A stretch of 42,917 nt of DNA from Candidatus Nealsonbacteria bacterium (GTDB lineage Bacteria; Patescibacteriota; Minisyncoccia; Minisyncoccales; PWPS01), in the NCBI GenBank assembly GCA_003560665.1, contig PWKK01000029.1, positions 1 to 42,917 of the forward strand, in the 5' to 3' direction. The first letter of the stretch is position 1. Each line of letters opens with the position of its first letter. Below are positions 33,309-36,162 of the stretch, piece by piece. The position numbers and the translations under genes are program-made. The notes under the pieces are model-generated. The model made no database searches. It worked only from the letters and a program-made list of their open reading frames with translations, and had not been told where the DNA came from.

Positions 33309-33923
33309 ATGATAGGAACAATATTAAAAAGAAAAAAAGTTATTTTTATTGCAGGAGACAGGAAACGAGAAACTGCTTACTTTGCGAATTTTGTTCTAAA
33401 AGACAGCTTCACCGTTTTTTCTTCCGACAAAATGCCGTCTATCTTTGATTTTTTTTCAGTGTTAAAGAGTAGTGTTATTATTATTGAAGACAATGACAGC
33501 GAAGACCCCCTTAAGGTGAAGAATTTTTTAGAGTTGTCTCGGTTTTGTATTTTTGTGGTTACAGAGACGGAAGAAAAGGCGAGAATAAGAAAAATTCTTC
33601 AAGGGCCATTGGAAAAATTAATTCTTGTTTTGGACTTCTCGATAGCAAGAAAACTAAAGAAAAGAAAAAAGAAGGATGTTCTTACTTTTGGTATTGACAG
33701 AAAGAGAGCAGCCTTTTATATTACTGATATTCATCAAAGGGAAAAAGAAACAAATTTTAAGGTGAATTACGGAGCAAACACGATTCCTTTTTGGGTAAAA
33801 GAAAAGCTAAAAAACAAAGAGATATATGCCGTTTTGCCGGCACTTTGCCTCGCAAAAATCTTTAAACTTAATTTGGCGAATGTTTCTCATAGAATAAGAG
33901 AGGAATTAACGTCTGGTAGGTAG
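33309..33923 (+). CDS. Degenerate, truncated Mur-ligase central-domain-like protein
   Basis: Position after the PBP; LTFG...FYITDI...TNFKVNY...IYAVLPALCLAKIFKLNL resembles the end of a Mur ligase middle domain; no GKT P-loop and no C-terminal domain. Confidence 0.5.
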   Translation: MIGTILKRKKVIFIAGDRKRETAYFANFVLKDSFTVFSSDKMPSIFDFFSVLKSSVIIIEDNDSEDPLKVKNFLELSRFCIFVVTETEEKARIRKILQGPLEKLILVLDFSIARKLKKRKKKDVLTFGIDRKRAAFYITDIHQREKETNFKVNYGANTIPFWVKEKLKNKEIYAVLPALCLAKIFKLNLANVSHRIREELTSGR

Positions 33924-34033
33924 GGTAAAAATTTGCTATTCTCTCCTTGTTATTTAAGCTTGTGAGATAAGAGCAAACACAGAAGCTTGTACTTCTTTGT
34001 TTTTTTTGTATTATTTTATACAGTTGTAGACAT

Positions 34034-34109
34034 GGCCCCATCGTCTAGTGGCTTAGGACGCCGGGTTCTCAGTCCGGTAACACGGGTTCAAATCCCGTTG
34101 GGGTCACCA
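34034..34109 (+). tRNA. tRNA-Glu (CTC) with encoded CCA
   Basis: Acceptor GGCCCCA/TGGGGTC, anticodon arm CCGGG-TTCTCAG-TCCGG, T-arm ACGGG-TTCAAAT-CCCGT, discriminator A34106, CCA 34107-34109. Confidence 0.95.
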
Positions 34110-35221
34110 TGAAAATTTTATACGGTATATCAATTCTTGCAGGAACAATAATCGGAGCAGGTCTTTTTTCGTTGCCTTATATTACTTCGGTAGTTGGTAT
34201 CGTGGTGATGCTCGGATACATTTTTTTTATAGGAGGAGTTTCTATTTTAGTTCATTATTTTTTAGGAGAGGTTTGTTTGAAAACTCCTGATTTTTTGCGT
34301 TTACCCGGCTTTGCCAAATATCATCTCGGCAAAAATGCACAAAAGATCGCCTACGTTTCCGGTATCTTAGGACTTCTTGGTGCAATTTTGGCCTACCTTA
34401 TTTTAGGAGGGGAGTTTTTGACGGCTCTTTTGGCTCCTGTTTTCGGAGGGGGAGTAGTGCAGTATACAACAATCTACTTTGTGCTTTCCTCTCTTTTCAT
34501 CTATTCCGGGATTAGGGCAATTTCAAAATTAGAATTTTTCGGAATTATTGTTTTTCTTGTTTTTTTATTGATTACCTTTATCCGTGGATTTGAGGAGATC
34601 GCAATTGACAATCTTTTTTTTATGCGAGAAGGGGAGTTTGATATTTTTCTTCCTTACGGAGCTCTCTTGTTTGCTCTTTGGGGCGGAGCTCTCGTCCCGG
34701 AAATTGAAGAAACTTTGTGTTTGGGGAAAGAAAGAAGAAAGCTTTTAAAAATTATACCAATCGGGATAATTCTTTCTCTCTTTATTTCTCTCTTTTTCGT
34801 TGTCATTGTGCTTGGAATTACCGGGGAACACACGACCAGAGAGGCTCTTGTCGGTCTTGAGAGTTACTTGGGCAACAGTATCGCCTCTTTGATGCTTGTT
34901 TTCGGTTTACTGGTTATTTTTACCTCTTTGGTGACCATTGGGCTTACGGTAAAGAAAATCCTCTGGTATGACTTAAAAATACAAAAAGATGTTTCTTGGG
35001 CGATTACCTGTATGATTCCCTTTATCCTTTTCCTAGTAGGAGTAAAGGACTTTATCATGGTTATCGGAATAGTTGGTGCAACGATGATTGCTGTAGATGC
35101 AATTCTTATTCTATTGATGTACGAAAAGATAAAAGAAAAGAAGGTTCGACTCATCACTTATCCTTTGATTTTTCTCTTCATTTTGGGTATTATTTACGAA
35201 ATTGTTTATTTTTTCGTGTAA
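34109..35221 (+). CDS. Amino acid permease (aromatic/hydroxy amino acid permease, TyrP/SdaC-like)
   Basis: ILAGTIIGAGLFSLP at the N-terminus, LPYGALLFALWG, about 11 hydrophobic segments. Confidence 0.85.
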   Translation: MKILYGISILAGTIIGAGLFSLPYITSVVGIVVMLGYIFFIGGVSILVHYFLGEVCLKTPDFLRLPGFAKYHLGKNAQKIAYVSGILGLLGAILAYLILGGEFLTALLAPVFGGGVVQYTTIYFVLSSLFIYSGIRAISKLEFFGIIVFLVFLLITFIRGFEEIAIDNLFFMREGEFDIFLPYGALLFALWGGALVPEIEETLCLGKERRKLLKIIPIGIILSLFISLFFVVIVLGITGEHTTREALVGLESYLGNSIASLMLVFGLLVIFTSLVTIGLTVKKILWYDLKIQKDVSWAITCMIPFILFLVGVKDFIMVIGIVGATMIAVDAILILLMYEKIKEKKVRLITYPLIFLFILGIIYEIVYFFV

Positions 35222-36162
35222 TGTTTTTTAATGTTGTAATTTTTCTTTTCTCTTGCTTTTTAATTATTTTTGCAAGCAGGATTATTATTGATGCGTTGTA
35301 CCGTCTTGCGTGCCGTTTGTGCTGGAAAGAATTTATTGTTGCTTTTTTTGCTGCTTCCGTAGGAGCGGTTATACCAGAGCTTTTCATTGGAGTGAGAGCA
35401 GCGCTGAAAGGTGTCCCAGAGTTGGCCTTGGGCAGCATTATTGGTCAAAATATTATCCTTTTTACGTTATCGGTTGCAATTTGTACATTTATTTTAAAAG
35501 AGATTGTCGTTGAGAGCAGAACTGTAAGGGCGGGAGCAGCATTTTCACTTTTCGCTGTTACTCTTCCCTTTATCCTTCTCTGGGATGGGGTGTTAAGCAG
35601 AATTGATGGAGTGATTCTCATTGCGGCATGCTTTTTCTATATCTACTGGCTTTTTTCTGAAAAAGATCATTTTTTAAAGAAGTATGAAGGAGTCTCTTTA
35701 AAATCATCTGTTCCAAAAGATATTTTGACTGTTTTTTTCGGATTTCTTTTTGTAGTTCTTAGCGCGGAGGGAATAATTTATTCGGCACAGAACATGAGTA
35801 TTCATCTTGGAATCCCACTTGCTATTTTTGGAATTTTTGTTGTTGGAATGGGAGTTGCTCTCCCGGAGACATTTTTTTCTGTTGCTCTTGCTAGCAGAGG
35901 GCACTCGTGGATGATTCTTGGGGGCCTTCTCGGTGCTATTTCTCTTTCTGCAACTCTTGTTTTAGGAATTGTGGCGGTTATTAGTCCCATTGAAGTTGTT
36001 GATTTTTCTTCTCTTCGTGTTGCTCAATTTTTCTTGATTTCCGCAGGATTCTTTCTTTTTCTTTTTGTGAGGACGAACAACAAGATTACGAAAAAAGAAG
36101 CATTTTTTCTGCTTGGAGTATATCTTCTTTTCCTCTTGTTTGAATTCATAATTCTTGCCTAA
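35221..36162 (+). CDS. Cation:calcium antiporter (CaCA/YrbG-like)
   Basis: Two alpha-repeats (VGAVIPELF...LGSIIGQNI; GVALPETF...LGGLLGA), DGVLSRIDG, ITKKEA. ATG overlaps the permease stop (TAATG). Confidence 0.82.
   Translation: MFFNVVIFLFSCFLIIFASRIIIDALYRLACRLCWKEFIVAFFAASVGAVIPELFIGVRAALKGVPELALGSIIGQNIILFTLSVAICTFILKEIVVESRTVRAGAAFSLFAVTLPFILLWDGVLSRIDGVILIAACFFYIYWLFSEKDHFLKKYEGVSLKSSVPKDILTVFFGFLFVVLSAEGIIYSAQNMSIHLGIPLAIFGIFVVGMGVALPETFFSVALASRGHSWMILGGLLGAISLSATLVLGIVAVISPIEVVDFSSLRVAQFFLISAGFFLFLFVRTNNKITKKEAFFLLGVYLLFLLFEFIILA

Follow-up and report, generated by a model that had tools for sequence, protein, structure and literature searches.

Overlap between the encoded CCA end of a tRNA-Glu gene and an amino-acid permease start codon in a Candidatus Nealsonbacteria genome

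A tRNA-Glu(CTC) gene and an amino-acid permease gene share a single base in a 42,917-nucleotide (nt) stretch of DNA from a Candidatus Nealsonbacteria bacterium (contig PWKK01000029.1; hereafter the window, to which all positions given without a contig label refer). The last base of the CCA encoded by the tRNA gene is also the first base of the permease start codon, and the permease gene in turn overlaps a downstream antiporter gene. We favor, with a probability of roughly 0.55, the reading that tRNA, permease and antiporter form an old co-transcribed unit that was compacted by loss of the spacer, and that its transcript is cut at the tRNA 3′ end to give a near-leaderless mRNA and a tRNA whose CCA is then repaired. 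The genome, which we take to belong to the candidate phyla radiation, is assembled as 679,080 bases (∼0.68 Mb) in 30 contigs, with 39.6% G+C, 46 tRNA genes and a marker completeness of 100%.

Anatomy of the junction

ARAGORN calls the tRNA-Glu(CTC) gene on the plus strand at 34034–34109, with A34106 as the discriminator and an encoded CCA at 34107–34109. The Rfam tRNA model (RF00005) matches the gene from 34034 up to the discriminator (34034–34106) over the full model (positions 1–71), scoring 58.2 bits against a gathering threshold of 29, and all seven pairs of the acceptor stem are standard or G-U. The bases after the discriminator read C34107, C34108, A34109, T34110 and G34111; A34109 is thus both A76 of the CCA and the first base of the permease ATG. 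This CCATG junction (34107–34111, plus strand) is found in the assembly and in the contigs of the sequencing runs described below, and the one-base overlap proposed by the first-pass annotation of this DNA is thereby confirmed by ARAGORN, Rfam, the sequence itself and the contigs. A cut after A34106, C34107 or C34108 would leave two, one or no leader bases, respectively, on the mRNA. When the RNA of 34020–34170 is folded, the centroid contains the acceptor, anticodon and T arms, with an energy no better than that of shuffled sequences (z 0.32); the fold therefore says nothing about the mRNA start. We rejected the idea that the CCA is a chance trailer, as CCA is encoded in 11 of 45 tRNA genes overall, including the two for tRNA-Glu, versus 1 in 64 expected by chance.

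The permease open reading frame (ORF; 34109–35221, plus strand) encodes a 370 amino acid (aa) protein of the Trp_Tyr_perm (HAAAP-type) family. Pfam PF03222 matches residues 2–345 on profile positions 4–365 of 393 with 61.7 bits (cut-off 22); the putative substrates are aromatic or hydroxy amino acids. Three observations fix the start at 34109. The upstream frame is closed by a TAG stop at 34046–34048, with no ATG, GTG or TTG in between. Downstream, the first in-frame alternative is a TTG that lies 65 nt past the discriminator, beyond the GTIIGAG motif. Finally, the homologues start at the same methionine in all 13 genus genomes that have a permease match, with the shared N-terminus M-K/N-x-x-Y-x-x-x-I-L-[AS]-G-T-I. 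The start is therefore as immovable as the first-pass annotation had argued, and the overlap leaves no space for a leader between the tRNA and the permease, again as had been claimed.

The permease stop codon (TAA, 35219–35221) and the ATG of the next gene (35221–35223) likewise overlap by one base, as TAATG (35219–35223), which bears out the predicted overlap with an antiporter. This gene (35221–36162, plus strand) encodes a Na_Ca_ex family exchanger (PF01699, 118.1 bits). The TAATG overlap is compatible with translational coupling of the two transporters.

Gene order, spacing and promoter-like elements among relatives

The gene order is conserved, whereas the overlap is not. The permease search covered 61 genomes of the order and all 14 genomes of the genus, and ARAGORN was rerun on the resulting loci. 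All 13 genus genomes having a permease match, and 26 of the 51 loci examined across the order, have a tRNA-Glu(CTC) gene upstream of the permease on the same strand; for some of the remaining 25 loci the available upstream sequence is short. The discriminator and the ATG are separated by 2 nt here, and this distance is 4, 4, 4, 4, 31, 42, 47, 64, 65, 72, 82 and 103 nt in the 12 other genus genomes. Across the 26 loci it is at most 7 nt in six, 16–47 nt in nine, 64–213 nt in seven and at least 564 nt in four, and reaches about 1000 nt within the order. The first-pass annotation had named variable spacing among relatives as the sign of chance compaction, and this is what we find (2–103 nt within the genus). 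Because the spacing varies, the overlap itself is a product of compaction and not a conserved device. In one genus of the family (locus L022 of genome G026) the lengthened spacer is made up of repeated ∼100-nt units ending in similar words, and several loci of this genus have a common motif ∼25–40 nt before the permease ATG.

Very short gaps occur in more than one part of the permease tree. In a maximum-likelihood tree of 50 rows, gaps of 7 nt or less fall into four separate clades with longer-gap clades between them: this genome (2 nt), L003 with L009 (4 nt), L029 with L036 (4 nt), and L042 (7 nt), which belongs to another family. The ratio of nonsynonymous to synonymous substitution rates (dN/dS) of the permease is 0.068 and 0.166 in the two sister pairs with a 4-nt gap (L003/L009 and L029/L036, respectively), and 0.055–0.135 between this genome and its relatives, with 0.055 for the nearest relative, L002; all of these ratios are rough, since dS is 0.7–2.5, near or past saturation. 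The low values indicate that a permease whose start lies 2–4 nt behind a tRNA is still in use and under purifying selection. Together with the recurrence of short gaps in the tree, they speak against dismissing the tight state as an accident. The tRNA-Glu gene called by ARAGORN has exactly the same sequence in relatives L002 and L012.

A contig from run X4, which derives from a co-occurring relative, reads CCATGAAA (34107–34114 in the window) followed by a short A-rich segment, after which its permease begins with a second ATGAAA. A deletion across short direct repeats of this kind would produce exactly the present overlap, a hint that comes from this single contig.

A promoter-like motif recurs in front of the tRNA. 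The pattern TTTAC-N14-20-TGnTAnnnT is found upstream of tRNA-Glu in 14 of 24 loci, in most of which its end is 11–21 nt away from the tRNA; as we had defined the motif by eye, the count is post hoc. In loci L002–L014 it overlaps the last codons of the upstream gene. In the window an extended −10-like TGnTAnnnT element lies at 33934–33942 on the plus strand, with 91 nt between it and the tRNA 5′ end. We take it as the candidate promoter of the unit, whose TTTAC −35-like half has decayed; the site of that half in relatives is overlapped here by the 3′ end of a 204-aa ORF without a Pfam family (33309–33923, plus strand). A generic sigma-70 scan lists no plus-strand site between 33722 and 35165, the tRNA interior included, and so does not list the 33934–33942 element either. 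Between the promoter-like element and the tRNA there is also an imperfect inverted repeat with AAGCTT-containing arms (33956–33964 and 33978–33988), with a T-rich run behind it; relatives whose promoter-like motif sits near the tRNA lack this repeat. As 2–4 nt leave no space for a separate promoter outside the tRNA, the simplest reading, and a plausible one, is that tRNA-Glu, permease and exchanger are co-transcribed from an upstream promoter.

Translation signals, processing enzymes and routes to two products

The first-pass annotation had also stressed that the junction has no room for a Shine-Dalgarno (SD) sequence. This argument carries no weight, because there is no SD signal anywhere in the genome. 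SD-like 4-mers occur at −20 to −4 of 11.2% of 547 crude ORFs, versus 16.1% and 17.0% in control windows, and the region upstream of ORFs is A-rich with no increase in G. A search by RNA model and motif found no 16S rRNA in this assembly. In G056, a complete single-contig relative from another family, CCTCC is missing behind the conserved GGATCAC at the 3′ end of the 16S rRNA (minus strand, loci L070–L101), and ORFs are preceded by SD-like motifs less often than expected from the control (10.1% versus 18.3%). SD initiation thus appears not to be used in this genome. There is a hint that many transcripts may be leaderless or have short leaders: among 218 genes whose upstream spacer measures 60 nt or more, −10-like hexamers ending 7–15 nt before the ATG number 65 at nine positions (7.2 each), versus 155 at 50 positions farther upstream (3.1 each). 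This distal background was used because the position-specific control (65 observed versus 44.9) is partly circular.

Tight packing behind tRNA genes is likewise general. In G056, 7 of 46 tRNAs are followed within 30 nt by the start of an ORF of at least 100 aa, with gaps of 1, 2, 4, 6, 10, 13 and 29 nt, so that four unrelated genes begin 1–6 nt behind tRNAs. The gaps of 1 and 2 nt belong to tRNA-Val(GAC) with an RluA-like gene, for which a later non-ATG start is possible, and to tRNA-Leu(CAG) with RNase J; both pairs also exist in the present genome. None of 117 tRNAs (46 here, 46 in G056, 13 on G037:C1 and 12 on G006:C5) has such an ORF start at or before position 74. Moreover, 28% of 601 crude ORFs in this genome have 10 or fewer non-coding bases upstream; with packing this tight genome-wide, tRNA-gene junctions are no tighter than gene-gene junctions. 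The arrangement is one extreme of the lineage-wide packing of tRNA and protein genes, and no dedicated regulator of amino-acid uptake.

The genome encodes a range of RNA-processing enzymes. The CCA-adding activity that the first-pass annotation held to be necessary is accounted for by a predicted CCA tRNA nucleotidyltransferase gene (NF009814, 300.8 bits versus a cut-off of 290), and 34 of the 45 readable tRNA genes lack an encoded CCA. RNase P is represented by a type A RNA (140 bits) and RnpA (74.5 bits). RNase J (TIGR00649, 548 bits), RNase Y (609.7 bits), an RNB exonuclease and a 712-aa protein with two RNase PH domains, which we read as PNPase, are also present, and RNase E/G was not found in this genome. 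This set of RNase J, RNase Y, PNPase and RNB is Firmicute-like.

The base after the discriminator is nearly constant. C74 is present in all 46 tRNA genes of this genome (e.g., window 34107 and 42803), while the full CCA is encoded in only 11 of the 45 readable ones, the second tRNA-Glu (TTC) among them. Across the 26 orthologous tRNA-Glu(CTC) loci the first base after the discriminator is C in every case and the full CCA is present in only five. C74 is also found in 12 of 12 tRNAs on G006:C5, 41 of 46 in G056 and 10 of 13 on G037:C1. Candidate explanations for the invariant base are a cut after C74 and pairing with RNase P RNA. In the tRNA genes of this genome the base after C74 is mostly A or T.

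From these elements we propose the following sequence of events. The promoter, tRNA-Glu(CUC), permease and Na/Ca-type exchanger would be one ancient transcription unit, within which the tRNA-permease spacer was free to vary; here it would have been lost wholly, with the encoded A76 doubling as the A of the AUG. A start codon directly behind a tRNA would be tolerated because initiation does not use SD sequences and genes are tightly packed. An endonuclease would cut the precursor after A73, C74 or C75, releasing an mRNA with 0–2 leader bases that would be translated as a leaderless message, and the CCA-adding enzyme would complete the shortened tRNA, such that both products come from one transcript. 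The cut would be made without a recognizable RNase Z, possibly after the invariant C74, as has been reported in Propionibacterium acnes. The first-pass annotation had held that one transcript cannot give both a tRNA with its encoded CCA and an intact mRNA. It is right in that a single cut leaves A34109 to just one of the two products; given a CCA-adding enzyme, this is no obstacle.

Several points weigh against this proposal. First, RNase Z, which normally cuts behind the discriminator and is the cutter that the first-pass annotation had put forward, was not found in this genome: the best match to TIGR02651 scores 21.5 bits versus a cut-off of 292.95, and is a 295-aa metallo-beta-lactamase protein that scores best, at 129.8 bits and below cut-off, as a ComEC C-terminal domain. 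None of the 61 genomes of the order passes the RNase Z cut-off, versus 9 of 14 control genomes, although a few have partial matches of 50–160 bits. Without RNase Z, exonucleases alone may mature the 3′ end, at the cost of the mRNA. Second, the invariant C74 may have another explanation, for example pairing with RNase P RNA. Third, in one genus of the family the tRNA-permease spacer measures hundreds of bases (200–825 nt), and at locus L028 of this genus a hairpin and T-run, read by eye, follow the tRNA; the tRNA-permease link is therefore dispensable and can be given up. Finally, the near-saturated dS noted above blurs the estimate of selection, the hint of leaderless transcripts depends on crude ORF calls in AT-rich DNA, and co-transcription, the cut and leaderless translation are all inferred.

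The strongest competing explanation dispenses with a precise cut and has the two products share the RNA in time. The permease would be translated from the chimeric RNA, either with the tRNA folded at its 5′ end or while the tRNA is unfolded; tRNA would be released when PNPase or an RNB enzyme degrades the mRNA 3′-to-5′ down to the acceptor stem, leaving the CCA enzyme to repair the end. The enzyme inventory suits this explanation, as RNase Z was not found while PNPase, an RNB exonuclease and the CCA enzyme are present, and the invariant C74 could mark where an exonuclease stalls beside the helix. However, the AUG lies 3 nt past the last acceptor pair, and a folded tRNA so close should hinder initiation, blocking the mRNA path as judged from 30S footprints. 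Furthermore, gaps of 1–6 nt recur at several loci under purifying selection, such that many genes would have to live with awkward initiation. We regard this explanation as doubtful, though worth serious attention. The cut with CCA repair, which resembles the tRNA punctuation of mitochondria, is favored because it gives both products from one transcript, because the C74 pattern and the P. acnes case fit it, and because a folded tRNA should hinder initiation.

Alternatively, a promoter inside or overlapping the tRNA could start the permease mRNA at or just before A34109, with no coupling between the two genes. There are hints of promoters directly before ATGs in this genome, and the permease probably has its own promoter in the long-spacer genus. 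Yet the −12 to −7 window before A34109 is G-rich acceptor-stem sequence, and relatives whose spacers measure 22 and 103 nt have an identical tRNA sequence. The sigma-70-type scan described above is equally negative here, and the same solution would have to hold inside the Val, Leu, Trp and Arg tRNAs of G056. With these points against it, independent transcription seems improbable.

An assembly artefact within a tRNA shared among strains, or a permease that is no longer expressed, can be set aside as very improbable. In its favor, the genome was assembled from a metagenome, as 30 contigs, and contigs from the reads break within the tRNA, where run X1 has a depth of ∼370 versus 13 downstream. 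The five runs listed as containing the window sequence are DNA runs from salt-lake and soda-lake metagenomes, with no RNA run among them. The junction was compared with Logan contigs from three DNA runs and two samples, which cover it (X1, 34081–34600; X2, 34081–34600; X3, 34080–34449) with zero differences and join the last 28–29 nt of the tRNA to the ATG; they possibly come from the same samples as the assembly, and are supporting evidence and not independent proof. The breaks lie farther 5′ inside the tRNA because co-occurring strains have the tRNA in common; the comparison lists no cover for 33700–34009, a gap that carries no weight as evidence. In addition, the permease ORF is intact at 370 aa with the low dN/dS values given above, and independent assemblies of relatives have gaps of 4 and 7 nt.

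A broader version of the preferred reading extends it to the whole order as a mitochondrion-like punctuation, in which an endonuclease other than RNase Z would cut after the near-invariant C74, both maturing the tRNA (with CA re-added) and making leaderless 5′ ends for the several genes behind tRNAs, SD initiation having been lost. We offer this extension tentatively. The wider pattern in the lineage comprises tRNA-abutted starts at several loci, no SD signal, no RNase Z and a near-invariant C74, and includes the lack of an anti-SD in the single relative whose 16S rRNA is readable (G056).

Known systems and other tRNA-abutted genes

In animal mitochondrial DNA, tRNAs flank the mRNAs and their excision yields leaderless mRNAs, an organization known as tRNA punctuation. 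The present locus is similar in that a tRNA gene adjoins a start codon (at 2 nt here and at 1–7 nt at other loci and in relatives); by analogy, the mRNA 5′ end would be set by tRNA processing, the message would be near-leaderless without an SD, and a nucleotidyltransferase would repair the CCA. It differs in that this is a free-standing bacterial genome in which a minority of genes lie behind tRNAs and in which the spacing varies among relatives. The mitochondrial 3′ cut is made by RNase Z, which was not found here, and a precursor spanning tRNA and mRNA is here a prediction from promoter-like motifs upstream of the tRNA. For these two reasons we do not file it as a member of the punctuation class, although it may work like one. 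If the proposal is true, the locus would be a bacterial counterpart of mitochondrial punctuation, with a separate origin in genome reduction. It would further imply a new tRNA 3′-end nuclease in a large lineage of uncultured bacteria, which has no recognizable RNase Z and needs CCA addition for most of its tRNAs. There is a practical side for annotation as well: gene callers that forbid overlap with a tRNA or expect an SD would clip or miss such starts.

Operons that join tRNA and mRNA are established in bacteria, as in the E. coli tRNA cluster upstream of tufB. There the message retains an ordinary spacer and ribosome-binding site, or else the tRNA follows the protein gene. The likeness to the present locus, on our proposal, is a promoter common to tRNA and protein gene, with RNase P and other nucleases separating the products; the difference is a spacer of 2 nt from the discriminator, overlapping the CCA. 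A further example is secG-leuU (PMC2241853).

The closest parallel for the proposed cut is P. acnes, which lacks tRNase Z. There, the portion of the report consulted describes cleavage between the two Cs of the encoded CCA, observed by dRNA-seq, and proposes repair by nucleotidyltransferase (PMC3848588). As in the present genome, no RNase Z homologue is present and tRNA genes with and without CCA are mixed, and a cut after C74 would fit the invariant C74 seen here. In contrast, P. acnes is an actinobacterium whose tRNAs are mostly transcribed singly, that portion mentions no protein genes abutting them, and the cleavage was measured there whereas it is a proposal here. The reduced genome of Buchnera, according to excerpts of the relevant paper, resembles this one in being small and in having mostly tRNA genes without CCA, which is added post-transcriptionally (PMC3439896); the paper does not mention overlap, RNase Z, leaderless or polycistronic transcripts, or the start codon. 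Finally, in Thermococcus kodakarensis, the passages seen describe a tRNA-Lys that is co-transcribed with TK0306 and lies inside its 159-nt 5′ UTR (untranslated region; PMC4247193). As in our proposal, a tRNA and the protein gene behind it are transcribed together, and leaderless mRNAs are plentiful in T. kodakarensis; this organism is an archaeon, and those passages report no overlap with a start codon. In the literature searched, excluding supplements, we met with no bacterial gene whose start codon is said to overlap the 3′ end of a tRNA, which does not prove that there is none, and the word ‘leaderless’ does not occur in the candidate phyla radiation and Patescibacteria papers searched for it.

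The first-pass annotation had suggested that the junction couples tRNA processing specifically to amino-acid import. This is not indicated, as tRNAs of the genome abut genes of quite different function in the same way, and a role of tRNA-Glu processing as a regulator of amino-acid import is not supported. All of the following neighbors are Pfam-confirmed and on the same strand as their tRNA. RecG begins 10 nt after tRNA-Arg(GCG) (C24:24592–24676), a CNNM/CBS transporter 13 nt after tRNA-Pro(GGG) (C1:138154–138241), RNase J 24 nt after tRNA-Leu(CAG) (C1:39646–39754), and an RluA-type pseudouridine synthase 27 nt after tRNA-Val(GAC) (C24:38501–38604). A class II aminoacyl-tRNA synthetase follows tRNA-Ser(TGA) at 28 nt, and UvdE follows tRNA-Lys(TTT) at 36 nt. 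The spacers at the RecG, CNNM/CBS, RNase J and RluA-like junctions are short and A-rich.

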